A stretch of 64,000 nt of DNA, taken from Ignavibacteria bacterium UBA2360 (lineage in GTDB: Bacteria > Bacteroidota > Ignavibacteria > Tepidaquicellales > OLB5). A program made the position numbers and the translations under genes. The notes under the pieces are model-generated. The model worked only from the letters and a program-made list of their open reading frames with translations. It did not search any database and had not been told where the DNA came from. The stretch spans positions 424,763 through 488,762 of the forward strand of contig DDTQ01000012.1 of NCBI GenBank assembly GCA_002344125.1, given 5' to 3'. Below are positions 399 to 56,683 of the stretch, in pieces. How positions within the stretch are numbered: the stretch's first letter is position 1; each line of letters opens with the position of its first letter.

Positions 399-517
399 TT
401 ATTTGTTTTTTTCAATTACTAGTTGTTAATATCTTGTCTTTAATCCTCGATTAAAGATCAGCAATCCGAAATCATGAAACCTGCATCCTGTCAACCTGCC
501 ACCTGTAACCTCAGCAC

Positions 518-1080: not shown

Positions 1081-1122
1081 TTTATAGTTTATAATTTATT
1101 GTTTATAGTTTTCAGTTTTATA
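1081..1122. repeat. 7-nt-period array, 6 units (TTTATAG TTTATAA TTTATTG TTTATAG TTTTCAG TTTTATA)
   Basis: Counted directly; lies in a phage intergenic spacer next to the double-hairpin element. Confidence 0.85.
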
Positions 1123-1127
1123 ATTAA

Positions 1128-1187
1128 TTGCTCACAAGAAAATTACGAAGTAATTTTCGAAGTCCCGCCATGGCGGGATTACTCATT
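1128..1187 (-). repeat. Double-hairpin element, copy 1 (GAAAATTAC-GAA-GTAATTTTC then TCCCGCC-ATG-GCGGGA)
   Basis: About 90 percent identical by eye to 63468..63527; overlaps the stop codon of 1179..1643. Confidence 0.8.
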
Positions 1188-1643
1188 ACTCATACTGAAA
1201 ATCTGCAGCTCAAACCCCACCACTGGAAAAATATACTCACCGCCCTTGTATGCTTTATCTATTTGGCTGATATTGATGCCGCATATGTTTGCGATCGTTA
1301 TTCCGTTGGAAACATACTCCAGCCCTGATTCAGTATTATAATTCAGTATATTACAGAACCTGAATAGCTTGTCATCTATCAGCTTTTTGTAAATTTCAGT
1401 TGATCTTTTATACAGCCTGAAATGAAATTCAAGTTTTACATTTACTGAGATCTCGCCTGCTTCATCATCGCCAAACGCAACTTCACTCAACTTTATGAAA
1501 TATGAATTATCCCTTAAGTTCGCAGGCAGCATATCCGGCTCAAAATTTACATTAACCGGTTTTAATTTTTCCTGTTCGGGCAGAGTGTCATTCATCAAAG
1601 TGATTTTCTCACTAATCCAATCGCAAATTACTTTATAAAGCAT
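1179..1643 (-). CDS. Phage structural hypothetical protein (head-tail joining region)
   Basis: 154-aa ORF, 6-nt gap to the upstream ORF; lies between capsid and tail candidates. Confidence 0.45.
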   Translation of the reverse strand: MLYKVICDWISEKITLMNDTLPEQEKLKPVNVNFEPDMLPANLRDNSYFIKLSEVAFGDDEAGEISVNVKLEFHFRLYKRSTEIYKKLIDDKLFRFCNILNYNTESGLEYVSNGITIANICGINISQIDKAYKGGEYIFPVVGFELQIFSMSNE

Positions 1644-4154: not shown

Positions 4155-4202
4155 GTGAAATATTCAAATAGTGAAATATTGAAATAGTGAAATTGTTTAG
4201 TG
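4155..4202. repeat. 16-nt tandem repeat GTGAAATATTSAAATA x about 3
   Basis: Units at 4155-4170, 4171-4186 and 4187-4202 (the third is diverged). Confidence 0.8.
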
Positions 4203-4225
4203 TAAGATAATTAATCAACTTCTAA

Positions 4226-4260
4226 TTGTTCATTGATCATTGTTCATTGTTCATTGTTAA
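4226..4260 (-). repeat. 7-nt-period array, 5 units (plus strand TTGTTCA TTGATCA TTGTTCA TTGTTCA TTGTTAA) spanning the scaffold gene stop codon
   Basis: The stop TGA (4246..4244) lies inside unit 3. The last two units encode …NNEQ. Confidence 0.85.
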
Positions 4261-4762
4261 ACCCAAATTTCTCTCTATACAACTTCCGCCAGAGTTCCGG
4301 CCTTTTTTTGCGGAGCTCCTCCTTTTCATTGTAGCTAAGCTCATCCCATTTACTGTTGAAGTTATCTCCTGTGCCTGTTCCCGGCCGGTTGGAATCACTC
4401 CCCGCAGGCGGCTTTGCCGCGTTGAGCTTAACATATTCCTTCAGCCCTTCTATGGTGGGTATCAGCTCCGCGATCTTCTTATGTTCTTCCGGCAGCTGTT
4501 CGTAGAATTGCTGCTTAACATTTCCTTCAAGGTCTGCGAATCTTTGAGCAAGCTCTTCCTTTTCACCGGTCAACGCGTTTACACTACCTTCAAGCTCCTT
4601 TATCCTGCCTTCTGACTTCCCCGAACTTTCTTTAAGTTTCATAAATTCGTTTGAGTCATTTACAAGCTTTTCATGCTCCGCTTTTGTTATGGTGATGTCC
4701 TCTTCCGGAGTTGAACCGCCTCCGCCTTGAGAACTATCACCACTGTTAAATGTTATTTCCAT
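4244..4762 (-). CDS. Phage scaffolding protein
   Basis: 172 aa, Gly/acidic N-terminus then a long charged coiled-coil (…KELEGSVNALTGEKEELAQRFADLEGNVKQ…); lies between portal and capsid. Confidence 0.6.
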   Translation of the reverse strand: MEITFNSGDSSQGGGGSTPEEDITITKAEHEKLVNDSNEFMKLKESSGKSEGRIKELEGSVNALTGEKEELAQRFADLEGNVKQQFYEQLPEEHKKIAELIPTIEGLKEYVKLNAAKPPAGSDSNRPGTGTGDNFNSKWDELSYNEKEELRKKRPELWRKLYREKFGFNNEQ

Positions 4763-13288: not shown

Positions 13289-13816
13289 ATGAAAAATAAA
13301 GAAATATTCAGCCTTAAGGTTAAACAGTCAGAAAGCCCGATTAGCTTTTTCGAAGAAGAATACAGCAGAATGACGGATATGGCGGCTGCCCTTGATGAAC
13401 TTTACTGGGATATTGAAAAAGAAGGTATTAATACCCACGTGATAAAAACTATCAACGAAACCGTGAACGGTTTTTATAATGAGCTTAGCGCGCTGTTCAA
13501 AATGGAAGAAGACATTCTGTTCAAAGAATTGAAGCAGGCTATGCCCGAAAAAGGGCTTGCTGACGCGCTGATTAATGAAAACGCGAATATTTTACTGCTG
13601 TTTGATGCGCTCAAAAATATCTTTTCTGAAAACGATGAGATCAGGAAAGAAAAGGACCTGCTGCAGGCCGAAATGATAGCCCTGGCAGATCTTCTGCAGC
13701 GTGACGCTGTGAAGAAAAATAATATGCTTGTTCACGAAATAAACATTCTATTGCCTCGGCAAAAACTTGAAGAAATGCGAACTAAACTGAAAAACGGACA
13801 GTTTGTACATGCCTGA
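13289..13816 (+). CDS. Hypothetical helical protein (weak hemerythrin-like resemblance, metal ligands not evident)
   Basis: 175 aa; starts 1 nt after the ferredoxin stop; …MEEDILFKEL… resembles the hemerythrin HxxxEE..LFP segment but lacks the His. Confidence 0.35.
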   Translation: MKNKEIFSLKVKQSESPISFFEEEYSRMTDMAAALDELYWDIEKEGINTHVIKTINETVNGFYNELSALFKMEEDILFKELKQAMPEKGLADALINENANILLLFDALKNIFSENDEIRKEKDLLQAEMIALADLLQRDAVKKNNMLVHEINILLPRQKLEEMRTKLKNGQFVHA

Positions 13817-13891
13817 TAAAATTACCAGGAACCAATAATCAATAAACAGGTATAATTCTATAGAGAGAGTTCATTTAGTTAAATAAATATC

Positions 13892-14017: not shown

Positions 14018-14817
14018 GCGCTATTTTTACATTAGACAGTCTTCCTTCAAGCTTTACTGATGAGTTAAAGTTACCATATCGTAAATACCTGAAGAAAGGT
14101 CTGATCTATTCAATAATTCTGCATATTTGTGTAGTTGCGGCTTATGGCGGAGCGCACTATTATCAAATGTATAAGCAGGAACAGGAATCGAAAAATATTC
14201 AGCAGCGAATAATTAATGTCTCATTAACTGATCTTGAACCGCCGCCATCGGCTCTTGACGAAGAAACACCGCCGCCAAAAGTGGAAGAACTTACGGCTCC
14301 AACTAAAGACCTGGAGGCGTTAACACCGCAGCCGGTCGCGAAGGAAAAAGCTGATGTTGAGACCATTAAAACCCAGAAAGAACTCGAAGAAATTAAAACT
14401 CCCGTTTCCAGCACCGGTGATACGGGTAAATTCAATTATTCAGGGGTTGTTAAGATAGAAGATAAGAAGATAGAAGAGAAGATCATAAAAAAGGAAATTA
14501 CTGAAGAAAAGGAAAAAACTGTTTACCAGTCTTTTGAAGTGGAAAAAGCGCCCGAATGCGTGAATCTGCAGCAAGTCAGGTCCTCAATGGTTTATCCGCC
14601 GATGGCTATAGAAGCGCAAATAGAAGGCAAAGTAACAGTTAAAGTCCTTGTCGATCCTTCCGGAAACGTTATCAAGATAGGAAGTATCAGCGGACCCGAA
14701 GTATTCAGGGATGAGGTATCTTCAAAATCCATGCAGCTCCAGTTTACACCCGGCTTGCAGAACGGCAAACCGGTAAAAGTGTGGGTAACAGTTCCGTTTT
14801 CCTTCAAACTGAATTAA
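14014..14817 (+). CDS. tonB: Energy transducer TonB
   Basis: N-terminal TM, Pro/Glu-rich linker, C-terminal TonB domain YPPMAIEAQIEGKVTVKVLVDPSGNV; AGGAGG 8 nt upstream of the start. Confidence 0.8.
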   Translation: MSAIFTLDSLPSSFTDELKLPYRKYLKKGLIYSIILHICVVAAYGGAHYYQMYKQEQESKNIQQRIINVSLTDLEPPPSALDEETPPPKVEELTAPTKDLEALTPQPVAKEKADVETIKTQKELEEIKTPVSSTGDTGKFNYSGVVKIEDKKIEEKIIKKEITEEKEKTVYQSFEVEKAPECVNLQQVRSSMVYPPMAIEAQIEGKVTVKVLVDPSGNVIKIGSISGPEVFRDEVSSKSMQLQFTPGLQNGKPVKVWVTVPFSFKLN

Positions 14818-16053: not shown

Positions 16054-16980
16054 ATGAACTACCTGAATAAAATAGCCATGCTTTTGATGTTGATAGCCAT
16101 AATTGCTTGCGGTAAAAGATCAGAGCAGAACACTCAGCAGAAGGAAAACAACAGCACCGGAAGCACAACAGAGCAGCAAAACAATCCAAACAATCCAAAC
16201 AATGACCCCGCGCCTGTAACCAAGACCGATAAACTGCCCGTCATAGGATCATACACCGGCGGTTTCACCGCCTCAGTGTATGATAATTCAAAAAACTATG
16301 TTTACGAAAACCGTATAACCGTATTTATCGATTCACTTGCAGGTGATATGATGTACGGCCGCAGCGTGGTTGCGGGAAATAACAGGCAGTTCAAAGGTAA
16401 GTTCACCAAAGAAGGCTCAAATTATAAAGCTGAGGTAACTGAACCCGGCGATGATAAATATGACGGTAAGTTTACTTTTACCGTTAAGATCGATGAAGCT
16501 AATACCAATGAGATCTATATGGAAGGCAAGTGGCAGGCAAATGATAAAAAACTTGACGTGACTGAAAGAACTTACAATCTTTACAAAAAGGATTTTGCTT
16601 ACGATCCGCAGCATTCGCTGCCTGAAAATGTTCAGTGGGCTGAGCTGTATGGATCTGATCCCAAATTTCCCGATAGAATTGAATCGCTTACTGCAGAAGT
16701 CACAAAATATAACGGATCAACTACCGAACTAAAGAAAGAAGACCTGCAAAATCTGTATAAAGGAGATCTTGAAATTATCCGAAACGCAATTTACGCCCGT
16801 CATGGCTATTCATTTAAGAATCGAAGGGTCAGGTTCATTTTCGATCAGTTCGTTCCGTGGTACATGCCTGTATCAACAGATGTAAGGGGGCAGCTCACCG
16901 ATCTTGAAAAGAAAAACATTGATCTCATTAAACGATTCGAAGAACATGCCGAAAAGTACTACGATGAATACGGAAGATGA
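16054..16980 (+). CDS. YARHG domain lipoprotein
   Basis: Lipobox LIAIIACG; C-terminal IRNAIYARHGYSFKN motif. Confidence 0.7.
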   Translation: MNYLNKIAMLLMLIAIIACGKRSEQNTQQKENNSTGSTTEQQNNPNNPNNDPAPVTKTDKLPVIGSYTGGFTASVYDNSKNYVYENRITVFIDSLAGDMMYGRSVVAGNNRQFKGKFTKEGSNYKAEVTEPGDDKYDGKFTFTVKIDEANTNEIYMEGKWQANDKKLDVTERTYNLYKKDFAYDPQHSLPENVQWAELYGSDPKFPDRIESLTAEVTKYNGSTTELKKEDLQNLYKGDLEIIRNAIYARHGYSFKNRRVRFIFDQFVPWYMPVSTDVRGQLTDLEKKNIDLIKRFEEHAEKYYDEYGR

Positions 16981-16984
16981 AAAT

Positions 16985-17054
16985 AATGTGCAATGTGCAA
17001 TGAGCAATGAGCAATGAGCAATGAGCTATGAGCTATAAACAATGAAAAATGAAT
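16985..17054 (+). repeat. 7-nt-period microsatellite, 10 units (AATGTGC x2, AATGAGC x4, TATGAGC, TATAAAC, AATGAAA, AATGAAT)
   Basis: Counted base by base; begins 5 nt after the stop at 16978..16980. Confidence 0.9.
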
Positions 17055-17117: not shown

Positions 17118-17615
17118 ATGAAAAATCTAATACTAATCCCATTTCTGGCGCTTGCACTGACAGGTGCCATCTGTTCAAAGAGCGATAACACAACATCCGA
17201 TAGCGATCTTAAAAAGAAAGAGCTTGAGCTCAAAGAAAAAGAACTCCAGCTTAAAGAAAAAGAGCTCGAAATGCAGAAACGTTCCGAAGGCTCCTCAAAC
17301 ACGAACGAGAACACTGACGGAAATTCCTCAGCCGGCAACTCCAGCATTTATCCTCAAGCCTCCGAAAGGCTGCTCACAAGTGATGATGTAAGCAATCTAA
17401 CGGCTTGGGAGCTTAAAATTATGCGTAATGAAATTTTCGCAAGGCACGGCTATATTTTCAAAAAAGAAGAAATGCGCAATTATTTTTTGTATGAAAAATG
17501 GTATGTTCCAAGGTTTGAGAATGTTGACGGAATGCTGAGCGATGTTGAAAAGAAAAATATCGAACTCATAAAGAGATACGAAAGCCGCCTCGGTAACAAC
17601 GATTACAGCAGGTAG
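17118..17615 (+). CDS. YARHG domain protein (secreted; coiled-coil KKKELELKEKELQLKEKELE)
   Basis: Signal peptide; MRNEIFARHGYIFKK motif. Confidence 0.7.
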   Translation: MKNLILIPFLALALTGAICSKSDNTTSDSDLKKKELELKEKELQLKEKELEMQKRSEGSSNTNENTDGNSSAGNSSIYPQASERLLTSDDVSNLTAWELKIMRNEIFARHGYIFKKEEMRNYFLYEKWYVPRFENVDGMLSDVEKKNIELIKRYESRLGNNDYSR

Positions 17616-29400: not shown

Positions 29401-29411
29401 TCTTAACTCAG

Positions 29412-29456
29412 CCACTCACCACTCAACCACTCACCACTCAACCACTTACTACTCAA
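29412..29456 (+). repeat. Tandem 15-nt repeat CCACTCACCACTCAA, about 3 units
   Basis: Read directly from the sequence. Confidence 0.7.
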
Positions 29457-29580
29457 CAATCCTCACCATTTCGCTTTTCCTTTGAAACTCCCTCAAATTA
29501 TGGGTATATTTGCAGATTATAATAAAAATAGCAGCGCTTATCTACCGGATTGGCGCATTTTAATACTGGAAAGGCATATA

Positions 29581-30603
29581 ATGCGTAAATATTTTTTCTT
29601 GAACTTCATACTGGCTGCTCTATTCATATATGTTTACGGCTGCGGTGATAAAAAAGACGATAAAAAAACTGATGGCAATAATAATACTACTCAATTCGTA
29701 AAAAAGGATAGCATTACAGGCAAAGATGTAGTTACATTGAAATATGTGGTTAATAAGGGCGATAAGTTCTATTATAAAATGGTCGCAAAGACATCCAACA
29801 TGGAAAAATCACCCGCAACCGAAAACAAGGAAGTTAAACAGGATAATGAGATCAATTACTACTATTCCAAAGAAGCTGATAACGTGGAGTCTTCCGGAAT
29901 TGTAAGCTATAAAATTACCTTCGATTCAATTAATATTTCCTCTTCAATGGGTGAACAGAGTATTAAGTATAATTCAAATGTGAACGATAGTGTAAAATTG
30001 AATCCTGCGTTCATTCAGTACAACGCTGTAATTGCCAATCCTTTCTACATCAGGGTGAGCCCTGCCGGCGAAATTACCGATGTTTACGGCATGGAAAAGA
30101 TATACGAAGTACTCTTCAAAGCGCTTGGTGATACATTAAAGGAAAAAGATAAACAGGAGATCAAGCAATCATTCGGCGAGGAATCTATCAAAGAGATCCT
30201 TCAGCAGGAATACCAGGTCTGCCCCACAACACCTGTGGTTATGGATTCCAACTGGACCAAAGCATTTAATACCTCAGTCTTATTCTTCGAAGTGGTAAAT
30301 AACGCGAAGTACACCATGAAGTCAGTGGAAACAAAAGACGGCAAGCAGATTGCCAACATCGAAGCCGCGCTTGTTGTGGAATTCAAGAACAAAGAAGTTA
30401 AAGAGCAGGGTATGACAGTTAAAGTTGAAAACGCTGAAACTTCCGGAAGCGGTAAGATCGCGCTGAATCTCTCACGCGGCTGTATTCAGAATAAAGAAAC
30501 TATGACCAATCTAAAACTCGATCTGAAACTTTCCGCCCAGGGACAATCAGCCAACTCAACACAGGCTGTTACAACAAATTTAACTGTAACATTGCTGAAT
30601 TAA
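29581..30603 (+). CDS. Hypothetical lipoprotein
   Basis: Start MRKYFFLNFILAALFIYVYGCG (lipobox) preferred over the track start at 29482. Confidence 0.5.
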   Translation: MRKYFFLNFILAALFIYVYGCGDKKDDKKTDGNNNTTQFVKKDSITGKDVVTLKYVVNKGDKFYYKMVAKTSNMEKSPATENKEVKQDNEINYYYSKEADNVESSGIVSYKITFDSINISSSMGEQSIKYNSNVNDSVKLNPAFIQYNAVIANPFYIRVSPAGEITDVYGMEKIYEVLFKALGDTLKEKDKQEIKQSFGEESIKEILQQEYQVCPTTPVVMDSNWTKAFNTSVLFFEVVNNAKYTMKSVETKDGKQIANIEAALVVEFKNKEVKEQGMTVKVENAETSGSGKIALNLSRGCIQNKETMTNLKLDLKLSAQGQSANSTQAVTTNLTVTLLN

Positions 30604-30769: not shown

Positions 30770-31408
30770 ATGGCTTATAAAAATCTGATCGAACTTTCTC
30801 ACCCGCTGGTAAAAAGCTACATAACCAAAATAAGAGATAAAAATACCTCGTATTTTGAGTTCAGGCAGTATGTTGATAAACTCTCCGTACTGCTTGCCTA
30901 CGAAGCAGGCAAGGAGCTTGGATTAAAAGCGCGCAAGATCAAAACACCGCTTGCTCCGTATAACGGCTCTGTGATAAAAGATGAAATAGTGTTAATGCCA
31001 ATACTCAGGGCGGGACTCGGTCTAATGAACGGCTTCTCATCCATCTTCCCCGAAGCCAGAATAAGCCACCTCGGCGTATTCCGTAACGAAGTTACGCTGC
31101 AGCCTATCAGGTACTATTTCAAATTTCCCAGGCTTAGAGATAAAAAAAATACCATAATATATATTTTAGACCCCATGCTCGCAACTGGCGGCAGCATGTG
31201 CAGCGCCATTGATGAAGCCAAAAAAACGGGAGCCGGAAAAATTGTCGCAGCATGCCTCGTAGCCGCACCCGAAGGCATAAAAGAAGTGCATAAGTATCAC
31301 AAAGAAATTAAAATTTTCACCTGCGCAATTGATAAGAAGCTGAACAATAAAGGCTACATTGTACCCGGCCTGGGAGACGCGGGCGATAGATTATTCGGAA
31401 CACTATGA
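30770..31408 (+). CDS. upp: Uracil phosphoribosyltransferase
   Basis: 212 aa; PRPP-binding ILDPMLATGGS; C-terminal YIVPGLGDAGDRLFGT. Confidence 0.9.
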   Translation: MAYKNLIELSHPLVKSYITKIRDKNTSYFEFRQYVDKLSVLLAYEAGKELGLKARKIKTPLAPYNGSVIKDEIVLMPILRAGLGLMNGFSSIFPEARISHLGVFRNEVTLQPIRYYFKFPRLRDKKNTIIYILDPMLATGGSMCSAIDEAKKTGAGKIVAACLVAAPEGIKEVHKYHKEIKIFTCAIDKKLNNKGYIVPGLGDAGDRLFGTL

Positions 31409-31457
31409 CAATTACGAATTACTAATTACAAATTATGAGTTATGGATTGTGGGTCAT
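31409..31457 (+). repeat. 7-nt-period array, 7 units (CAATTAC GAATTAC TAATTAC AAATTAT GAGTTAT GGATTGT GGGTCAT)
   Basis: Starts on the base after the upp stop codon. Confidence 0.85.
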
Positions 31458-31560
31458 GACTCAAGAACTATTCTGCAGCAAGCAGCTTGACTAGTAAAAG
31501 TTACTGATTTTGACAATAGCCCACGACTTCAGTCGTGGGAACATAGAACGTGAACAACTG

Positions 31561-31582
31561 AAAACCGTTTCAACGGTTTTTT
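31561..31582 (+). terminator. Rho-independent terminator AAAACCGTT-TCA-ACGGTTTTTT
   Basis: Stem plus T6. Confidence 0.7.
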
Positions 31583-31808
31583 GATATTGGACTTAAAAGG
31601 AATTAAATTTCGGGATTCTTCGTTTATTTTATTAACTGGCTAAATACAAAATAGTAGGGCTATTGTCCCATTTCTTAGTTTTGAAAGATTCCCGATATTC
31701 TTCTTTTTGAGTTGCCACGACCTTTAGGTCGTGGATAAAATTGCCCCCAAAAAGGGGCTTTAGCCCCGGTTGATAATTCAAAAGAATTATAATTAACCCG
31801 TAATTGAT

Positions 31809-34154: not shown

Positions 34155-35237
34155 ATGAAAACAAAAATCACTGCATTATTTATTTTGTGTTTACTCACAT
34201 CAGCGTTTTTATGGAATTTTAACGATTTATCTGCCCTCAAGGGTGAAATGCATTCGGCAGATACTCTCATCTACCCGCAGGAAAAACACTTCAAGAATAT
34301 GCAGATGTTAACCAACGGCGGCGAAAATGCCGAAGCTTATTTTTCCTTTGATGGCTCAAAAATAATATTCCAGGCAACAGGTGAATATGAATGCGATCAG
34401 ATATTTATCATGAATCCCGATGGTTCCGGAAAGCATCTTGTAAGCACAGGTAAGGGCAGAACAACCTGTTCATACTTTTACCCCGATGGCAAGAGCATAC
34501 TGTACGCTTCAACGCATTTAGGCGGCGATATGTGTCCCCAGAAGCCTGATCACTCCAAAGGTTATGTGTGGGCTTTGTATTCTGATTACGATATTTTTAA
34601 AGCTGATCTTGATGGCTCTAACCCGGTTAAACTAACCGACGTTAAAGGTTACGACGCCGAAGCTACCGTTTCACCAAAAGGCGATAAAATTATCTTCACT
34701 TCAACCCGTAACGGAGATATTGATCTTTATTCAATGAATCTCGACGGCTCTGATGTTAAGCAGCTTACAAATATTCCCGGTTACGATGGCGGCGCGTATT
34801 ATTCCTATGACGGGACAATGATAGTTTTTCGCGCATCAAGATTTGATGACCCCGCTAAGCTGAAGGAATACCAGGATCTCCTTGCCGAAGGGCTTATCAG
34901 GCCCGGGCAGCTTGAAATCTACGTTATGAATGCAGACGGTTCAAACATCCGGCAGGTAACAAATAACGGTGCCGCAAACTTCGGGCCGTACTTCTTCCCC
35001 GATGGAAAAAGGATAATCTACTGCTCAAACCAGGATGACCCCAAAGGCAGAAATTTTGATCTGTATATGATAAACGTTGATGGTACAGGCAATGAAAGAA
35101 TAACTTATAACGATACTTTTGACGGTTTCCCAATGTTCTCACTTCACGATGGCGGCAAAAAATTCGTGTTCTGCTCAAACCGCTTCAACGCTAAACAGGG
35201 CGAAACCAACGTTTTCATCTGCGATTGGGTAGAATAG
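34155..35237 (+). CDS. TolB-like PD40 beta-propeller protein (secreted)
   Basis: Repeated …PDG..I.F.S.R.G..D.Y.MN.DGS… blades; signal peptide. Confidence 0.75.
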   Translation: MKTKITALFILCLLTSAFLWNFNDLSALKGEMHSADTLIYPQEKHFKNMQMLTNGGENAEAYFSFDGSKIIFQATGEYECDQIFIMNPDGSGKHLVSTGKGRTTCSYFYPDGKSILYASTHLGGDMCPQKPDHSKGYVWALYSDYDIFKADLDGSNPVKLTDVKGYDAEATVSPKGDKIIFTSTRNGDIDLYSMNLDGSDVKQLTNIPGYDGGAYYSYDGTMIVFRASRFDDPAKLKEYQDLLAEGLIRPGQLEIYVMNADGSNIRQVTNNGAANFGPYFFPDGKRIIYCSNQDDPKGRNFDLYMINVDGTGNERITYNDTFDGFPMFSLHDGGKKFVFCSNRFNAKQGETNVFICDWVE

Positions 35238-35243
35238 GCATAA

Positions 35244-35285
35244 TGTCAAATGTCAAAGGTCAAAGGTCAAATGTCAAATGTAAAA
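35244..35285 (+). repeat. 7-nt-period array, 6 units (TGTCAAA TGTCAAA GGTCAAA GGTCAAA TGTCAAA TGTAAAA)
   Basis: Begins 7 nt after the stop at 35235..35237. Confidence 0.9.
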
Positions 35286-35362
35286 CGTGATGCTACTAAG
35301 CAAATGTGCTGAACTGCAAAATGCGCAGAATGCCAAAATTCAAAATGAATACTTTTGAACAA

Positions 35363-35413
35363 ATTCCCCTCTCGAGAGGGGTGGCTGGCTTTAGCCAGTC
35401 GGGGTGTGTAAAA
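35363..35413 (+). repeat. ATTCCCCTC…GAGGGGTG[inner hairpin]CGGGGTGTGTAAA element, copy 1
   Basis: Second copy at 40469..40520 has a different inner hairpin (GCTGGCTTTAGCCAGT versus TTCCGATTTATCGGAA). Confidence 0.6.
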
Positions 35414-35448
35414 ACTAAATATTGATTTCCCGCGCAGTCTTTTTTGTC

Positions 35449-35582
35449 CCCGCAGAGTCTCTTCAAACAAGGACTCTGCGATAGCTCAATCACTGTGAAA
35501 ATATAATGCTTTTCGTTGGAGTGCATTGACTAAGTCAATGCTTCGTCCGGAATCCGTAGGAGTTACAAATATATAGATTTTT
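35449..35582 (+). repeat. About 130-nt direct repeat, unit 1
   Basis: Core ATCACTGTGAAAATATAATGCTTTTCGTTGGAGTGCATTGAC is identical in both units. Confidence 0.8.
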
Positions 35583-36054
35583 TCACAGCGGAGTCTCTTC
35601 AAAGAAGGACTATGCGATTGCTCCATCACTGTGAAAATATAATGCTTTTCGTTGGAGTGCATTGACTGTGCTTGCCCGCCTCGGGCGTGGTCAATGCTCC
35701 ATCCAGACTCCGCAGGAGTCAAAGATTCATAGATCTTCACAAGAATAATATTATATGACTCCGTAGGAGTCACATATTTATAGAATAGCAAACAAATGTG
35801 TATACGACTCCATCGGAGTCGCACATAAACTGCAGTAAATTGTTCATTATGTCAACATAGCTCCCCTGTTTTCTAAGTAAATCTGTAAATAGCCCCGTAG
35901 GGGTGGTATGTTTGTAGCACGCAGTAATAAAGTTTTTCAGAGCTCCGTAGGAGCGGCATAAAAATTCAAATGTTTCCAAATCCCGAAGGGATGACATTAT
36001 TGTAACAAACCCGCAAAAAAAAATCAAAAAAAACCCGAAGGGTGATATAATAAT
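35551..36054 (+). repeat. Array of 8 hairpin-plus-tail elements (stem 4-6 bp, loop 3 nt, then ACATATTTATAGAA-like tail)
   Basis: Copies start at 35551, 35706, 35757, 35806, 35893, 35942, 35981 and 36033, all on the + strand. The last ends at the ATG of the M28 peptidase gene. Confidence 0.7.
35584..35740 (+). repeat. About 130-nt direct repeat, unit 2, with an extra hairpin inserted in the GCATTGAC/GTCAATGC loop
   Basis: TAA loop of unit 1 is replaced by TGTGCTTGCCCGCCTCGGGCGTG. Confidence 0.8.
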
Positions 36055-38592: not shown

Positions 38593-39099
38593 TTACTTCA
38601 ATATCTTTATCCCTGTCGCCATAATCCTGTACATCTTCTGTGGACCCACAACTAAATTCGGGTCAGTACCCGCTTCTTCGGCGAAGTGTTTTGCCTGGTC
38701 TTCGGTAATTTCCCTGATGCTGAAAACGCCTTCAACTACAGCAACCTTGCCTGTGATATCCATTTCCTTTGGCATAATGAACTTATGCATCGTTAATGCG
38801 CGGATATTATTCGTACCGTCGCTAATGACAGTCCAGCAGCCGCCTGTGCGGCATAACTCGCTCATGTTTCCTTTTAATACAACGGTCTTGCCCACAAACG
38901 CTGATGTATCAGCATAAATATCGCCAACGCTGATAACTTTAAGTTCACCGTTTATATCGGTGCCGTATAACGTGCCGTCCGGAAGCTCTTTAGCTTCGAC
39001 CTTTTCATCATCTTTTTTATTTTCTTCGCCGCTCTGCGCACTCGCTGAAAGCGATGCGAAAAATAATACTAATGGCAGTAAATACTTTATAAATTTCAT
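38593..39099 (-). CDS. DUF4920-like secreted protein
   Basis: …CRTGGCWTVISDG…, …EDQAKHFAEEAGTDP…; I prefer the start MKFIKYLLPL at 39099. Confidence 0.6.
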   Translation of the reverse strand: MKFIKYLLPLVLFFASLSASAQSGEENKKDDEKVEAKELPDGTLYGTDINGELKVISVGDIYADTSAFVGKTVVLKGNMSELCRTGGCWTVISDGTNNIRALTMHKFIMPKEMDITGKVAVVEGVFSIREITEDQAKHFAEEAGTDPNLVVGPQKMYRIMATGIKILK

Positions 39100-39220
39100 T
39101 GTGTAGAATTGATTTAGTTTAAGTGAATTTACAAAAATACTTATAATCCGCAAAATTTGGAATGTAAAAAAATGTCATAAGTTTAACCAATATCCCTAAG
39201 AGGTAGTTGGAAGGCACACC

Positions 39221-39343
39221 TATCAACCCTGCCCCTAAAGGGGGGCTGGGGTCACAATTATCAACCCTCCCCCTTTAAGGGGGGCTGGGGTCACAATTAT
39301 CAACTCTCCCCCTTTAAGGGGGAGCCGGAGGGGGTCACAAAAA
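39221..39343 (+). repeat. Three head-to-tail 39-46-nt units TATCAACCCTCCCCCTTTAAGGGGGGCTGGGGTCACAAT
   Basis: Units at 39221-39258, 39259-39297 and 39298-39343; each contains a C-arm/G-arm hairpin. Confidence 0.85.
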
Positions 39344-39373: not shown

Positions 39374-39874
39374 CTATAGAACAAACATTACACCTGCAGT
39401 AAACAAAAACATTGCAGAGTTATCATAATGAATAGGACTTTTGATTTCTATAGATACGGCTTGTTTTTTGCTTAAGAAATAACCGGCTTTGAAACCAGCC
39501 ATGAAATCAAAACCCAACCCGCCCTGGCCAATCAAGAGTGCACCGCCTGCCCCAATTGATAATATTAAGTTATCCTCTTCAAACCCAACTGATGGAATGA
39601 AATCAAATGACACGACAACTTTTCTGCTGAATTCAGGTTTGTAAATATCGATGCCTGTATTTAAAGAAACAAAACTGTTTAGTCTGTTTGTTAAAGTTCC
39701 TGATACTACATAAGATGTTTCATCCTGTCTACTTTCTGATAGTGAAAAAACTTTATATATACCTGCTCCTGTATAAAGCAAAGTTTTATGAGAACGCCAT
39801 GAGTCTGTTATACTTTGTGAATTGAGAGATTCTAAGAGTAAGAATGCTAATAATATAACGGCTCTTGATCTCAA
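39374..39874 (-). CDS. Small predicted outer-membrane beta-barrel protein (paralog family)
   Basis: Signal peptide, alternating beta-strand pattern, C-terminal …TAGVMFVL; 4-nt overlap with the upstream paralog. Confidence 0.45.
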   Translation of the reverse strand: MRSRAVILLAFLLLESLNSQSITDSWRSHKTLLYTGAGIYKVFSLSESRQDETSYVVSGTLTNRLNSFVSLNTGIDIYKPEFSRKVVVSFDFIPSVGFEEDNLILSIGAGGALLIGQGGLGFDFMAGFKAGYFLSKKQAVSIEIKSPIHYDNSAMFLFTAGVMFVL

Positions 39875-45306: not shown

Positions 45307-45308
45307 TG

Positions 45309-45392
45309 TACCGCCAAACGGACTCGAACCGTTACAATGTTGCCATTACTAGATTTTGAGTCTAGCGCGTCTACCAATTCCGCCATGGCGGC
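45309..45392 (-). tRNA. tRNA-Leu (anticodon CAA), class II with long variable arm
   Basis: Manual fold: acceptor GCCGCCA/TGGCGGT, D-arm GCGGAATTGGTAGACGC, anticodon arm CTAGA-CTCAAAA-TCTAG, variable arm AATG-GCAA-CATT, T-arm AACGG-TTCGAGT-CCGTT. CCA is not encoded. Confidence 0.85.
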
Positions 45393-45497: not shown

Positions 45498-45746
45498 CTA
45501 TTTGCCTATCAAACTTCTCAAAAACTTTCTTCCGGCTGATAACTTCAATTCTCTTTCACGCCGCATCGCGGCTGATTTATCAGGCTGCTCTTCGTTATAT
45601 ATCATCCTGTACGGCCTGTATGGTTTTGTTGATTCAACATATCCATCACAGTTCTGCTTAAATCTTCTGTCAAGATTATCCGTGTGACCCACATAAATCC
45701 TGTCTCTGGTTTCAGAATACAGGCAATAAACGAAGAATTTTCGCAT
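45498..45746 (-). CDS. Small GIY-YIG nuclease family protein
   Basis: 82 aa; FVYCLYS…RIYVGHTDNLDRR…, downstream Arg/Glu (RRERELK). Confidence 0.85.
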   Translation of the reverse strand: MRKFFVYCLYSETRDRIYVGHTDNLDRRFKQNCDGYVESTKPYRPYRMIYNEEQPDKSAAMRRERELKLSAGRKFLRSLIGK

Positions 45747-46987: not shown

Positions 46988-47614
46988 TTATTTCAGTTCA
47001 ATTTCTTTTAGCACATAATATGTGCGGGTCAGCTGTGGGGGATTCGTACGGTTAGCGCCCCATTTTACTATCCCAACATCTTTCTTAAACCACATTTCAT
47101 AAGAAAATGTAAATCCGTCTGTCATGGATACATATATACAATCATTGTAAGTACCTGCTTCCGTAACTGCCGTTTCGTTTTCGCTGTTAACGTAACCCGT
47201 GAAGATGCCGAATTTCCAGTCATACCCTGTTCTCATATCACCAGCTTTTGGTACTATGGTACCACTTGCGCCCATATAATCTTTAATTTCAATCTCACCG
47301 CTGTTGCGAATTTTCACTGTACGCTCTTCATTGGATTGAGTTAAGTAGGGGAATGTTGATACTTTAGACTGCATCCCGTCCTCAACCTTTTTCAGGTCTT
47401 TTACTTGTACCGTATATAATACGGTTTCTTCTCTGGGAGCTTCGTTGATATATACCCATTTATTCCCCTCTGATATTGGGAAGTATTCATTAAAATTTAC
47501 AGAGTTTGTTTTTTTATCCTTTACACTTGTTTTTGTATCACCGGAATTACAGCTAAACGCGCTCCCCGCCAATATGATAATTACTAATAATGTATATTTA
47601 CTAAAACTTCTCAT
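46988..47614 (-). CDS. Hypothetical lipoprotein
   Basis: Lipobox AGSAFSC; 208 aa; 4-nt overlap with the upstream gene. Confidence 0.5.
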   Translation of the reverse strand: MRSFSKYTLLVIIILAGSAFSCNSGDTKTSVKDKKTNSVNFNEYFPISEGNKWVYINEAPREETVLYTVQVKDLKKVEDGMQSKVSTFPYLTQSNEERTVKIRNSGEIEIKDYMGASGTIVPKAGDMRTGYDWKFGIFTGYVNSENETAVTEAGTYNDCIYVSMTDGFTFSYEMWFKKDVGIVKWGANRTNPPQLTRTYYVLKEIELK

Positions 47615-48267
47615 TTCTTCCCGCCGGACTTTCTGTTCGTGCCGCTTCGCTTTGACCGGGTATTTGCCGAGCCATGTTTTCTTACGGGTTTTTTCTTTGG
47701 TGTGGCCTTAACCTCCGGTTCTGTAACCTGCTGCTCTACTACATTCTCTTCCAGTGCTTTAGGTAACTGTATTTCTTCTTCTATAATAACTTCCTCTGTA
47801 ATAACTTCCTCTGTAACAACTTCCTCTGTAGCAACTTCCTCTGTAATAACTTCCTCTGTAATAACTTCTGTAACTTTCAGGTCTTTAGTTAGAATTTTAT
47901 CGCTTCCTGTTTTAATGATCTCTTTAATAATTATATCTTCTTCAATTACATTGCCTTTGGGTATATAAGCAAATTTTTTCCCGCTTACGAAGTTTATCAT
48001 CTTGAAAAGCAGTGGTGAGAAAGTTATTGCTGTAAGCACAGCTATCAAAAGCGCAGCATTTAAACCATAATAAATATCAAACTTCAAAACATATGTAAAA
48101 GTTAATATCTGTAAAGAAATGAATGAGAGAACTAAAACTCCTGCAAAAAAGGGATTAGTTAATTTATTGAATTTTAAGCGGAAATTACTGCTCAGAATCC
48201 CCGGCACTAATATTATCAACGCCGCAAGGAAAGGCAAAGCCTGCAATATTGTAATTTGCTCACTCAT
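47611..48267 (-). CDS. Membrane protein with an acidic (V/I)TEEV pentapeptide repeat and a basic tail
   Basis: 3 N-terminal TM; VTEVITEEVITEEVATEEVVTEEVITEEVIIEEE encoded by 15-nt repeats at 47786..47872. Confidence 0.5.
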   Translation of the reverse strand: MSEQITILQALPFLAALIILVPGILSSNFRLKFNKLTNPFFAGVLVLSFISLQILTFTYVLKFDIYYGLNAALLIAVLTAITFSPLLFKMINFVSGKKFAYIPKGNVIEEDIIIKEIIKTGSDKILTKDLKVTEVITEEVITEEVATEEVVTEEVITEEVIIEEEIQLPKALEENVVEQQVTEPEVKATPKKKPVRKHGSANTRSKRSGTNRKSGGKK

Positions 48268-53675: not shown

Positions 53676-55073
53676 ATGAACACTAATACCCCCGTTTCCA
53701 ACAAAATGCCTAAAGGCATTCCCTATATTATAGGCAATGAACTTGCCGAACGCTTTAGCTATTACGGAATGAAAACAATACTCGTTGTATTTATGACGCA
53801 GTATTTAATGAACCGCTCGGGCGCTGTTGAACCAATGACCGATGCCGATGCCACTACATGGTATCACTACTTTTCAATGGCTAATTATTTCTTCCCCATA
53901 CTCGGTGCAATTCTATCCGATGTGCTGTGGGGTAAATACAAAACTATTATGACCCTTTCTATTGTGTATGTATTAGGGCACGTTGCACTAGCAGTTGATG
54001 ATACAAGGCTAGGTCTCTCTATCGGATTGACACTCATAGCAATGGGCTCAGGCGGTATCAAACCGTGCGTTTCCGCGCACGTGGGCGATCAGTTCACCCA
54101 AGCGAATAAACATCTCCTCGAAAAAATATTCGGCTATTTTTATTTTTCTGTAAATCTCGGAGCCGCAGCTTCATCACTGCTGACTCCCGTACTGCTTGAT
54201 GTTTATGGACCGCATCTCGCTTTCGGTGTACCCGGATTCCTTATGCTGGTTGCAACTATAGTATTCTTTATGGGCAGAAAGGTCTTCGTGGCGGTACCGC
54301 CGGTAGGGTGGAAGCAATACAAAGGCGACCTGCTATCCAAACAGGGGAAGAAAGCTATTGTAAATCTTTCAGTTATGTATATATTCATTGCCGTGTTCTG
54401 GTCTTTGTTCGATCAAACCGGTTCCAGTTGGGTGCTGCAGGCCGAGCAAATGGATAAATTCGTGGATCTTGGATTCGTTAAGTTTGAACTCCTCGCTTCG
54501 CAAATTCAGGCCATCAATCCGCTGCTGATAATGATCTTTATACCGCTTTTTACTTCAGTGTTATACCCGTTCCTGAATAAATTTTTTAAACTGACTGCCC
54601 TTAAAAAGATCGTTATCGGTATGTTCATTGCCGGGTTTTCATTCGCGCTGCTGGCTGTCGCCCAAATGCAGATTGTCGGCGGTTCAACACCCAGTATATT
54701 ATGGCAGTTCTTTGCGTATTTTATACTTACTGCCGCCGAAGTCATGGTTTCTATTACCGGACTCGAATTTTCATATACACAGGCTCCTAACAGCATGAAA
54801 TCGTTTGTAATGGGACTCTGGCTCCTTTCAGTCGCGCTCGGTAATTTTATTACCGCGCAGGTAACATCACATCTTCAGGATATTGTTACCATTGGCACAC
54901 CTCTGTATTTTTGGTTCTTTGCCGGACTCATGTTCGTTACTGCGATCATATTTGTTATAATCGCCTCAAGGTACAAAGAAGAAAGCTATATCCAGAATCG
55001 TGACGAAAAACCAAAACCGCTTGCCGGTACTGAAGGCATATTAACCGATATGGATGGCGTTGATAACAAATAA
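53676..55073 (+). CDS. POT/PTR2 family di-/tripeptide:proton symporter
   Basis: …GNELAERFSYYGMKTILVVFM… signature; 465 aa, multi-TM. Confidence 0.9.
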   Translation: MNTNTPVSNKMPKGIPYIIGNELAERFSYYGMKTILVVFMTQYLMNRSGAVEPMTDADATTWYHYFSMANYFFPILGAILSDVLWGKYKTIMTLSIVYVLGHVALAVDDTRLGLSIGLTLIAMGSGGIKPCVSAHVGDQFTQANKHLLEKIFGYFYFSVNLGAAASSLLTPVLLDVYGPHLAFGVPGFLMLVATIVFFMGRKVFVAVPPVGWKQYKGDLLSKQGKKAIVNLSVMYIFIAVFWSLFDQTGSSWVLQAEQMDKFVDLGFVKFELLASQIQAINPLLIMIFIPLFTSVLYPFLNKFFKLTALKKIVIGMFIAGFSFALLAVAQMQIVGGSTPSILWQFFAYFILTAAEVMVSITGLEFSYTQAPNSMKSFVMGLWLLSVALGNFITAQVTSHLQDIVTIGTPLYFWFFAGLMFVTAIIFVIIASRYKEESYIQNRDEKPKPLAGTEGILTDMDGVDNK

Positions 55074-55274
55074 AATCCCGCTTAAGCGGGACCAGCAAAA
55101 AAAGCTGGAATGACAGATATCAAAGCTCAAATATCAAATATTTTTAACAAATGATTAAACATTTTTGTCATCCTGAAGAGTCCCGCGAAAACAACGCGGG
55201 ACGATAAAGGAGCCGGACGACAATCTCGGATTCTATACTTCGCCTCCACTTGCATTCATCTCCATTCAAACACT

Positions 55275-55351
55275 GACTCCAGCGGAGTCAAACATTTATA
55301 GAACAATTGTAAAATAAAAAAAACGACCCCATAGGGGTCGCACTTAGAAAC
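55275..55351 (+). repeat. Two hairpin-plus-tail elements
   Basis: GACTCCAGCGGAGTCAAACATTTATAGAAC; GACCCCATAGGGGTCGCACTTAGAAAC. Confidence 0.65.
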
Positions 55352-55390: not shown

Positions 55391-55427
55391 TTTCCCACGT
55401 TTCACATTTCACATTTCACATTTCACA
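55391..55427. repeat. 7-nt-period array (TTTCACA x4 preceded by TTTCCCACG)
   Basis: Counted directly from the sequence. Confidence 0.85.
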
Positions 55428-55599
55428 TCAATAAATTCCTCTATTAACCATTTCCTGTTTCACCTCTGGCTAGGCGATCATAACTAGAGCTGTTATTCCA
55501 AAAACAGTACCTTTAATACATTCAACTGATTATTGTATATTATTATTCAATTCTTCACAATTGTGACATTTATTTTGTAATCTTTATGAATACTTAAAT

Positions 55600-55627
55600 T
55601 TTGACATTTGAGCTTTGTCATTTGAAA
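55600..55627 (-). repeat. 7-nt-period array abutting the stop of 55635..56006 (plus strand TTTGACA TTTGAGC TTTGTCA TTTGAAA)
   Basis: Ends 7 nt from the stop codon. Confidence 0.75.
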
Positions 55628-55634
55628 TTACGCT

Positions 55635-56006
55635 TCAATAGATTCCTTTGTCCTTCATATACTGTTTCACTTCCTCATTGTTCAGGAAAACCAGTCCAAC
55701 AATACCAAATACCATACTTGCAACGTTACCTGTCAAAATTGATGCAATATCAAATATTGAGGCAAACTGAACGGAACTATATGTGCCTGAACGGTTCATT
55801 TTATTCAGTCTGTTGTAAGCAACAAAATCCATTACACATGCAATTATGTTTATTATCGGAAATGCGCCAAACAGGCACCCAAGTCCGCAGGAAATGAGAC
55901 CGCCTATGAATGTATAGCCTGTCCATCCGAAAGCGTAAAGTCCGTTTACAATACCGGATATCAGGAAAAAAGTTCTGAGTAGATTCAGCTGCTCGTTATT
56001 ATTCAT
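55635..56006 (-). CDS. Small integral membrane protein, unknown function
   Basis: 123 aa, 3-4 TM. Confidence 0.45.
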   Translation of the reverse strand: MNNNEQLNLLRTFFLISGIVNGLYAFGWTGYTFIGGLISCGLGCLFGAFPIINIIACVMDFVAYNRLNKMNRSGTYSSVQFASIFDIASILTGNVASMVFGIVGLVFLNNEEVKQYMKDKGIY

Positions 56007-56021
56007 TTTATTGTGATTGAA

Positions 56022-56279
56022 TTATAATATAAAACCTCCGGCTGCCCACCGGAAAAATCCGAATACCAGGGTTATCAGATTCAGCGCAAGGCCAATTCCC
56101 GCAAGATGCCTGTTTTGCTTTGCGTAAATATCATCCTGCAGCAGCCCTATCAGGCTTAAGATCAAACCCACAATTGCAACCGGCAGGGTTACCCAAAAAG
56201 TCCACCCCAAACATGGTATAAACCCAATGACCATTGCAATTATTACTATTATACCGATTATTAAACCTGCTTTTGTCAT
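56022..56279 (-). CDS. Small integral membrane protein, unknown function
   Basis: 85 aa, 3 TM; 4-nt overlap with the upstream gene. Confidence 0.45.
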   Translation of the reverse strand: MTKAGLIIGIIVIIAMVIGFIPCLGWTFWVTLPVAIVGLILSLIGLLQDDIYAKQNRHLAGIGLALNLITLVFGFFRWAAGGFIL

Positions 56280-56614
56280 AATTTGTTTCCTCCATATTGA
56301 AAATGATAAGATCCTTTAGAAATTAATTTTTTGATACCGTAAACCAAAAAGATCATTGTATTCACCGCAAACAAAACAAAAATAAAGAGCGAATTCCCGT
56401 TTGCAGTACTTGCCCTGTTAAAATCTCCCGATGTAATTGCGGCAAAGCCGCGTGTCATCCCGCATGCTATGCATTCTGTGTGATTTTCTGTGATATCGCT
56501 GCATATAGGGGTTTTGTTAAGCAGTAATTCATCGTTCATACTGAAGAATATAACCAGCACTGCCATTATCAGCAGACTGTAAAATAACCATGCGCTTTTA
56601 ATTGCATTTAACAT
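56276..56614 (-). CDS. DUF2752-like membrane protein
   Basis: C…C-x2-CGMTRGF motif typical of DUF2752. Confidence 0.55.
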   Translation of the reverse strand: MLNAIKSAWLFYSLLIMAVLVIFFSMNDELLLNKTPICSDITENHTECIACGMTRGFAAITSGDFNRASTANGNSLFIFVLFAVNTMIFLVYGIKKLISKGSYHFQYGGNKL

Positions 56615-56618
56615 ACTG

Positions 56619-56657
56619 TTGTTTAGATCAGATTATTGTTTAGATCAGATTATTGTT
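56619..56657. repeat. Tandem 17-nt repeat TTGTTTAGATCAGATTA x2.3
   Basis: Read directly from the sequence. Confidence 0.85.
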
Positions 56658-56683
56658 TCCGCGATAACTGAGTTTTGGTAAAT

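Follow-up and report, generated by a model that had tools for sequence, protein, structure and literature searches.

Our analysis showed that a 64,000-nucleotide (nt) stretch of the genome of the uncultured Ignavibacteria bacterium UBA2360 (assembly GCA_002344125.1, contig DDTQ01000012.1, positions 424,763 to 488,762 of the forward strand; hereafter the window, G+C ~40%) carries short tandem arrays with a 7-nt period in its spacers, and that these arrays favour the positions directly behind stop codons and, read in the sense of the gene upstream, mostly have an A-rich core in common. We consider it probable, at roughly 0.65, that they are heptanucleotide repeats made by slippage which accumulate in the transcribed 3' flank of genes, with at least one of them, the main array behind a gene for a YARHG lipoprotein (16054-16980), being retained by selection. 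They add a new lineage, the Ignavibacteria, to a known kind of repeat and are not a new element.

Enrichment of a seven-nucleotide period in spacers

Genes were placed on the window by a longest-open-reading-frame heuristic, which makes their stops reliable and their starts not, and arrays were detected with Tandem Repeats Finder (TRF) at a score cut-off of 30. A first-pass annotation of the letters alone had listed eight arrays, all of which we found at the positions and with the words given. TRF returned period-7 rows starting at 478, 1081, 1178, 4225, 14452, 16985, 31410, 35242, 55117 and 55396; the row at 14452 turns out to be a repeat of 15 nt inside a coding region, and the remaining nine, with 2.3 to 8.7 copies arranged head-to-tail, lie in spacers or at extreme gene ends (Table 1). 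The arrays are non-coding, as had been claimed, in the sense that each of them either stands in a spacer or reaches no further into a gene than its final codons. Decay of the units with distance from the core, also described before, is visible at 16985 and 31409.

In a strict lag scan of periods 1-15, compared with 100 shuffles that kept dinucleotides in 500-nt blocks, the window yielded six period-7 arrays against 0.16 expected (the largest number in any shuffle being one), and every other period gave zero to two. A looser scan of intergenic DNA only, with a threshold of 14/21 lag-7 matches, found 16 segments (~12 loci) at lag 7 against 1.4 in shuffles, while lags 4-6 and 8-12 gave 1-4 segments against 1.1-1.7. 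Of all tandem-repeat periods, only seven, put forward in the first-pass annotation as a strict period, shows strong enrichment in the window. The two weak arrays at 55118 and 55600 both pass the looser lag-7 test and are therefore probably real members of the set. Nor is the excess peculiar to this genome: loci of related Ignavibacteria and Bacteroidota, together with a small number of bins labelled Acidobacteria (639 kb in all), contained 33 period-7 arrays compared with 2.8 in shuffles, the runners-up being period 3 (11 versus 3.0) and period 8 (6 versus 0.8). A chance origin is ruled out by the shuffles in all three of these settings, and an assembly artefact by four independent public assemblies, in which the arrays have the same sequence.

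Other periods occur beside the heptamers. In a spacer of a relative with 91% PD40 identity (L177, 5687-5734) there is an 8-nt tandem of six units (ACCATTTC / ACTATTTC), so that period 7 dominates in the lineage without being the sole period. Within the window, an 8/16-nt repeat at 4155-4193 (GTGAAATATTCAAATA, 2.4 copies) lies ~30 nt from array 4226, so that one spacer can host tandem repeats of different periods.

Table 1. Period-7 arrays of the window, with units read on the strand shown
Array	Coordinates	Strand	Units	Detection	Position
Main (16985)	16981-17054	+	10: TAATGTG CAATGTG (CAATGAG)x4 CTATGAG CTATAAA CAATGAA AAATGAA	TRF score 80, 8.7 copies; lag score 41	3-4 nt past TGA (16978-16980) of YARHG gene 16054-16980; ends 64 nt ahead of paralogous YARHG gene 17118-17615
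upp (31409)	31409-31457	+	7, graded: CAATTAC GAATTAC TAATTAC AAATTAT GAGTTAT GGATTGT GGGTCAT	TRF; 22/28 lag-7 matches past stop	0 nt past TGA of upp (30770-31408); hairpins and a terminator-like stem follow near 31520-31590
PD40 (35244)	35242-35285	+	6: AATGTCA x2, AAGGTCA x2, AATGTCA, AATGTAA	TRF score 67; lag score 28	4-6 nt past TAG of PD40/TolB-like gene 34155-35237
4226	4225-4262	-	CAATGAA CAATGAA CAATGAT CAATGAA CAATTAG	TRF score 61	TGA (4246-4244) of minus gene 4244-4762 sits 10-12 nt inside; last four codons of that gene are array units
1081	1081-1122	-	6: CTATAAA / CAATAAA / TTATAAA	TRF; 21/28 lag-7 matches before start	5 nt before ATG of minus gene 518-1075; 56 nt past stop of 1179-1643, beyond hairpin; start-adjacent, not stop-adjacent
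55391	55391-55428	-	4.7: AATGTGA	TRF score 59	~206 nt past stop of minus gene 55635-56006, in its 3' flank
55600	55600-55627	-	4, weak: TTTCAAA TGACAAA GCTCAAA TGTCAAA	Under TRF score 30; passes 14/21 lag-7 test	7 nt past TGA (55637-55635) of minus gene 55635-56006
55118	55118-55138	+	3, weak: TATCAAA GCTCAAA TATCAAA	TRF score 36	44 nt past stop of POT-family transporter gene 53676-55073, beyond hairpin 55074-55093
478	478-511	-	AGGTTAC AGGTGGC AGGTTGAC AGGATGC AGGTT; G-rich, without AAT core	TRF, 4.7 copies; missing from first-pass annotation	6 nt past TAA (520-518) of minus gene 518-1075
1178	1178-1193	-	2.3: GAGTAAT, of main-array word family	TRF, 100% match; could be chance alone	Overlaps TAA of minus gene 1179-1643; followed by hairpin CCCGCCATGGCGGG
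13820	13820-13850	+	Weak: ACCAGGA ACCAATA ATCAATA AACAGGT	Looser lag-7 scan; not individually significant; missing from first-pass annotation	3 nt past stop of gene 13289-13816

Position behind stop codons and orientation

The arrays had been described as mostly starting 0-7 nt past a stop codon. This holds for five of the eight (16985, 31409, 35244, 55600 and 4226, the last overlapping its stop) but not for 1081, 55118 and 55391. If arrays were placed uniformly within their spacers, 0.51 of the eight would be expected within 7 nt of a stop (P = 2.8e-5 for the five seen); when the relatives are included and orthologs collapsed, eight of 22 independent loci are stop-adjacent against 1.59 expected (P = 6e-5). 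Seven arrays in the window abut or overlap a stop, and only 1081 and, weakly, 61205 abut a start. The stop-anchored autocorrelation suggested in the first-pass annotation was run over ~700 kb: at least 18 lag-7 matches in the first 28 nt past a stop were reached 3, 11 and 6 times in three sequence sets, with almost nothing at other lags except 14 (twice seven) and nothing at lag 7 in mid-coding windows; in windows before starts the counts were 1, 3 and 6. As to the 3'-end formation raised in the first-pass annotation, where an intrinsic terminator can be recognised the array does not take its place but lies upstream of it, between stop and terminator; arrays 55600 and 55391, for example, are both upstream of the minus-strand terminator at 55341-55323.

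When public metagenome contigs were searched for AATG cores occurring five times with a spacing of 7 nt, 80 loci came up. They span very diverse G+C and show every possible 3-nt tail, so that there is no universal vocabulary. With the arrays masked, the left gene presented a sense stop in 40 cases and a start in 22 (P = 0.03). Sense stops fell within -21 to +12 nt of the array in 18/40 cases, compared with 6/40 for antisense stops, and in 11 of these 18 the stop was within the first array units. Where both neighbours were called (n = 43), 17 spacers were convergent, 24 co-directional and two divergent. In many bacteria, AATG arrays thus prefer the 3' flanks of genes and are scarce in spacers rich in promoters. 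The co-directional spacers held 14 sense and 10 antisense arrays, and the orientation signal outside the stop-adjacent metagenome cases is modest.

We asked whether the stops are made by the arrays. A stop supplied by the array does hold for gene 4244-4762 and for the 11 of 18 stop-adjacent metagenome arrays just mentioned, but truncation of the gene by an array that creates its stop is ruled out as a general account by Upp, which is full length: it matches its Pfam model through the final position, and its stop is thus native and not array-made. Its C-terminus, ...GDAGDRLFGTL, is the canonical one. Seeding by duplication of the stop-containing heptamer found no support either: the consensus of each array, extended in phase into the 14 nt upstream, matches no better than the six other rotations. 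A further proposal is that a unit bearing TGA, TAA or TAG places a stop in each frame within 21 nt, so that ribosomes that have read through or shifted frame are released before the terminator or the next gene. Many sense units do contain a stop (CAATGAG, CAATTAA, CAATTAG, TAATGAG, CAATGAA, TGATTAA, TATGAAC, GGTAGCA), array 4226 supplies the stop of its gene, and the gene stop inside the first units of those 11 metagenome arrays would agree with such a use. However, AAATGTC (35244) and most NAATTAC units (31409) have no sense stop, and among 11 independent stop-adjacent arrays that were inspected, sense stops are present in ~8 and antisense ones in 5-6, so that heptamers this rich in A and T show no clear asymmetry. 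A second or third stop would also be enough, leaving ten units without explanation, and periods of 4, 5 or 8 would serve equally well yet are not enriched; we regard this explanation as very unlikely.

According to the first-pass annotation, the word differs at each locus. Locus-specific variants do exist, but an A-rich sense core is common to most of them. In the sense of the gene that precedes each array, the words are CAATGAG/CAATGTG (16985), CAATGAA (4226), GAGTAAT (1178), AAATGTC (35244), AAATGAC/AAATGTC (55600), AATGTGA (55391), NAATTAC (31409) and TATCAAA (55118), and nearly all carry CAA(A/T) or AAT(G/T), the exception being 478. They form the groups CAATGAG/CAATGAA/GAGTAAT, AAATGTC/AAATGAC/AAATGTG, and NAATTAC. 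Pooled over ten arrays, A makes up 45% of the sense strand, T 25%, G 18% and C 12%, and the A/T ratio is 1.85 compared with 1.03 in other 3' flanks of the same genomes. The sense orientation does not come from a general strand skew, as the AATG/CATT ratio in those other flanks is merely 1.0-1.25. Whichever strand the local gene is on, the arrays are oriented with it, while the cumulative GC skew keeps a single direction throughout the window; orientation therefore tracks transcription and not replication.

This orientation bears on the possibility that the arrays are operators or iterons, 7-bp heptads on DNA bound as by the ribbon-helix-helix protein omega/ParB of pSM19035, which regulate a neighbouring promoter. 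The omega/ParB protein needs at least four contiguous 7-bp heptads on double-stranded DNA and reads them one dimer per unit (PMC9499535), so the contiguity of the units is alike. The main array, moreover, ends 64 nt before the next gene and is followed by a candidate Bacteroidota-type -7 box (TAACTTTG), picked out by eye against the Bacteroidota consensus TAnnTTTG. At the same time, the omega/ParB heptads are found at promoters and centromeres, in direct and inverted units, with one consensus and beside the gene of their binder, none of which was seen here: the units are direct only, words vary between loci, the omega consensus WATCACW is never tandem in the window, and none of the 20 window proteins scanned with Pfam has a ribbon-helix-helix domain. 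Array orientation follows the upstream gene, and arrays are present in convergent spacers without a downstream promoter (35244, 55600 and 17/43 metagenome arrays, compared with 2/43 in divergent ones). We give this reading hardly any credence.

Several other explanations were tried and set aside. Rho-loading (rut) sites are C-rich and G-poor, and the sense strand here is C-poor, with 12% C against 18% G. A structured RNA or known RNA family is ruled out by the Rfam scan of the window, which returned tRNA-Leu only, together with folding energies of the arrays (-7.2 to 0 kcal/mol) that are within the range of their own shuffles. We agree with the first-pass annotation that the arrays are not copies of a single mobile repeat: apart from four isolated 10-mers, mostly of low complexity, the flanks of ten arrays (80 nt each) have no sequence in common, which rules out a MITE- or REP-like element. 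Phase-variation (contingency) repeats do not fit arrays that are 3' of genes, the main one being identical in four assemblies.

Turnover and retention among relatives

The arrays of relatives differ by whole units, in line with the local generation that had been proposed. The comparison of unit counts at orthologous loci, which the first-pass annotation had called for, gave a difference of 14 nt (two units) between relatives L003 and L004 and of 14 nt between the window and L176. Contigs with an identical YARHG protein are present in several public assemblies, and the main array shows no variation among such near-identical strains (four assemblies, identical proteins). In one further assembly (L045; GCA_002344545.1, DDUA01000022.1) a run of ~320 N starts inside the ortholog of array 16985-17054; the heptamer array probably caused this break in the scaffold, and the figure of 414 nt for the spacer in that assembly, against 137, is unreliable.

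Elsewhere the turnover is rapid. The upp array is missing in L051 and L176 despite an identical Upp protein, with just AAATTTC AAATTAA and a different hairpin in its place; the first ~110 nt of the upp spacer (31409-31520) are wholly different in these two and the other ~290 nt nearly identical, a sharp boundary which suggests replacement by recombination and not gradual divergence. The PD40 array, of six units in the window, has four in an ortholog at 93% amino-acid identity (L176) and heterogeneous AAnnnCA units at 89%, and is absent from orthologs at 91% and 79%. Most arrays are evolutionarily short-lived.

The array behind the YARHG gene behaves differently. The nearest relatives of the YARHG protein (61-81% identity) are in metagenome-assembled genomes labelled Ignavibacteria, and in 12 of 13 such orthologs a 7-nt-phased array is found 2-5 nt past the stop. 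Its units read (C/T)AAT(G/T)A(G/A/T) in nine and AAAT(G/T)(T/A)C in three, nearly all of these arrays repeat AAT at strict 7-nt phase four to eight times, and in L006 the array has a 21-nt higher-order repeat. Identity at 4-fold sites of the adjoining gene is 0.29-0.48, with 0.27 expected at saturation. The array thus persists while neutral sites are randomised, which points to selection, the more so since concerted evolution driven by slippage should not slow the divergence of the consensus word. On these comparisons the YARHG array has probably been retained by selection.

Such retention, and the orientation described above, are also what would be expected if the arrays as a class were functional RNA elements, in which phased CAA(A/U) or AAU(G/U) cores, set every 7 nt immediately past the stop codon, each take one single-strand RNA-binding protein per unit. 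A cold-shock-domain protein with a heptanucleotide site or S1-type OB folds would be candidate binders, and binding would control how stable the mRNA 3' end is, how far the terminator is read through or how the following cistron is translated, slippage merely tuning the copy number. In favour of this, the AATG core is sense-oriented at ~9 independent stop-adjacent loci of the window and its relatives and antisense at none; orientation follows the gene strand, not the direction of replication; phase and core are deeply retained at the YARHG locus with heterogeneous units; and the arrays are unstructured and upstream of terminators. CspB of B. subtilis binds a heptanucleotide site, an earlier proposal for heptamer repeats has one protein sitting on each heptamer, and deletion of such repeats alters reporter expression in Nostoc (for recF and recO) and in E. 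coli. The sense core, the 7-nt phase and the published CspB site are thus indirect pointers to phased RNA sites that bind a protein. On the other hand, most arrays are unconserved (upp being strain-specific and PD40 patchy), array 478 lacks the core and array 1081 stands at a start codon, metagenome AATG arrays have 3-nt tails of every kind, and the arrays are no less structured than their own shuffles. No candidate binding protein was found among the 20 window proteins scanned with Pfam, none of which has an RNA-binding or ribbon-helix-helix domain, and a binder encoded nearby was rejected on this ground. For the arrays as a class we find this reading possible, though unlikely. A narrower version, in which a subset of the arrays of Ignavibacteria (perhaps of Bacteroidota-Chlorobi) is a stop-anchored cis-acting mRNA element read unit by unit, with slippage as the dial, is likewise offered tentatively and seems to us unlikely as well.

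Palindromic hairpins are a separate feature of some of these spacers. In the window they are built on GACTCCnnnGGAGTC (35296-36054 and 55275-55289; four exact matches against 0.05 expected), with looser copies such as GAGCTCCGTAGGAGCG. A cluster of them is hosted by the 817-nt gap between the PD40 gene and an M28 peptidase gene, which looks non-coding; the three overlapping minus-strand reading frames there are probably spurious, and 35486-35824, the one of the three that was scanned, had no Pfam match. Similar hairpins are present in the orthologous YARHG spacers of L006, L012 and L013, once interrupting a heptamer array. The GACTCCnnnGGAGTC hairpins look like a REP- or MITE-like family of Ignavibacteria.

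The window has further tandem repeats of longer period. A perfect 17-nt tandem at 56619-56658 (TTGTTTAGATCAGATTA, 2.4 copies) lies directly past the start-proximal end of minus gene 56276-56614 and adjoins a strong minus-strand terminator (56715-56686). The spacer between minus genes 38593-39153 and 39374-39874 holds a 39-nt tandem at 39221-39322 (TATCAACCCTCCCCCTTTAAGGGGGGCTGGGGTCACAAT, 2.6 copies, 93% identity), each unit of which contains a CCCCC...GGGGG hairpin. Two 15-nt repeats were seen, one at 47775-47868 (CTTCCTCTGTAATAA, 6.3 copies) inside minus gene 47611-48267, where it presumably encodes a 5-residue protein repeat, and one at 29406-29457 (ACTCAACCACTCACC, 3.5 copies) just upstream of gene 29482-30603. 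The sole tRNA gene of the window, tRNA-Leu CAA at 45308-45392, is adjoined by a minus-strand gene (45498-45746) for an 82-residue GIY-YIG nuclease-domain protein, a pairing that is kept in relatives L176 and L178.

Known heptamer repeats and the meaning of the arrays

The first-pass annotation knew of no described element class that matches these arrays. This has to be revised, as heptanucleotide tandem repeats are a published class: according to Mrazek (2007), as summarised in PMC4679880 and PMC4692102, they are the commonest of the long simple-sequence repeats (LSSR) for most prokaryotic genomes and are mostly intergenic. In the same summaries, the proposed cause is that ~7 nt of DNA contact the polymerase, which favours slippage (Mrazek, Guo and Shah 2007). 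The two ideas offered in the first-pass annotation were therefore already in print, slippage with a ~7-nt contact (Mrazek 2007) and one protein per heptamer (MacGregor 2015). Our arrays share with LSSR, as described there, direct 7-nt units, an excess of period 7 as the commonest period, an intergenic bias, many words per genome and length changes by whole units. The packing against stops, the A-rich sense core and the retention at saturated divergence set them apart from the LSSR descriptions given in PMC4679880 and PMC4692102, and Ignavibacteria are not named among the LSSR-rich examples in those descriptions. Two general surveys of tandem repeats gave nothing specific to 7-nt units.

Among named heptamers, the STRR repeats were reported in Calothrix in 1990 (Mazel et al. 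1990, as cited in PMC4692102) and, as far as described there, resemble ours in being tandem intergenic heptamers at many loci of heterocystous cyanobacteria. The two sets differ in that STRR consist of a few fixed genome-wide words, compared with locus-specific variants on an A-rich core here. The STRR words CCCCAGT, TTGGTCA and CAACAGT never occur twice in a row in the window.

Heptamer direct repeats, TAACTGA among them, were also described from Beggiatoaceae, from cyanobacteria and from five Bacteroidetes, with S1, cold-shock or CsrA proteins proposed as binders at the RNA level (MacGregor 2015, PMC4679880). They too make short spacer arrays (of 2 to >40 heptamers), often abut coding sequence, show 7-nt indels between strains and occur in the sister phylum Bacteroidota, and one Flexibacter set lies immediately past a stop codon. 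However, they have one dominant word and stand mostly just upstream of starts, in forward orientation, whereas the dominant position here is just past stops. In the window TAACTGA has 12 single copies, none of them tandem, and no tandem GGGAATC was found.

Short cores at fixed spacing on single-stranded RNA are also recognised by TRAP and HutP, the sites of the latter being UAG plus 4 nt with a period of 7. Those sites belong to 5' leaders, where they work a terminator/antiterminator switch in one or a few Bacillus operons, unlike the arrays described here, which lie in the 3' flanks of many unrelated genes.

Taken with these precedents, the reading that we favour is as follows. Arrays would arise and change size by slipped-strand mispairing in replication, with the preference for seven coming from the replication machinery, as in the proposal of Mrazek et al. 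They would gather behind stops because no other part of a compact spacer is under so little constraint: its far side would contain terminators, promoters and leaders, and deletion would purge the unused DNA between. We infer both slippage as the generator and relaxed constraint as the cause of the position. Most arrays are probably neutral or nearly so. The YARHG array would be the exception, and its likeliest role may be that of an unstructured, A-rich 3'-untranslated region or intercistronic mRNA with one site per 7 nt for a single-strand-binding protein.

Several points weigh against this account. Slippage requires near-identical neighbouring units, yet several arrays have no two identical neighbours (31409, 1081, 55600 and the orthologs in L003, L009 and L013). 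Neutrality alone would not lead one to expect a common core in sense orientation, nor the reuse of two word families at unrelated loci (16985, 4226 and 1178; 35244 and 55600), nor the retention of the YARHG array across saturated divergence. The variable positions of the YARHG array are mostly the G and C of CAATGAG, and AT-biased mutation can thus explain part of the apparent conservation of the core. The reason for seven over five, six or eight is borrowed from a published hypothesis, the orientation tests rest on small numbers (14 sense against 10 antisense in the co-directional metagenome spacers), and distances to start codons are unreliable in gene maps built from longest reading frames.

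Heptanucleotide repeats are among the commonest repeats in bacterial spacers, and this Ignavibacteria window adds three testable regularities to them: packing against stops, an A-rich sense core, and one array that holds its phase. If the retention at the YARHG locus reflects selection, that locus is a well-defined place to test function; if it does not, the arrays stay a by-product of slippage that also breaks genome assemblies. Should a cis-acting mRNA element prove to be the true reading, a class of repeats known since 1990 would gain its first function.

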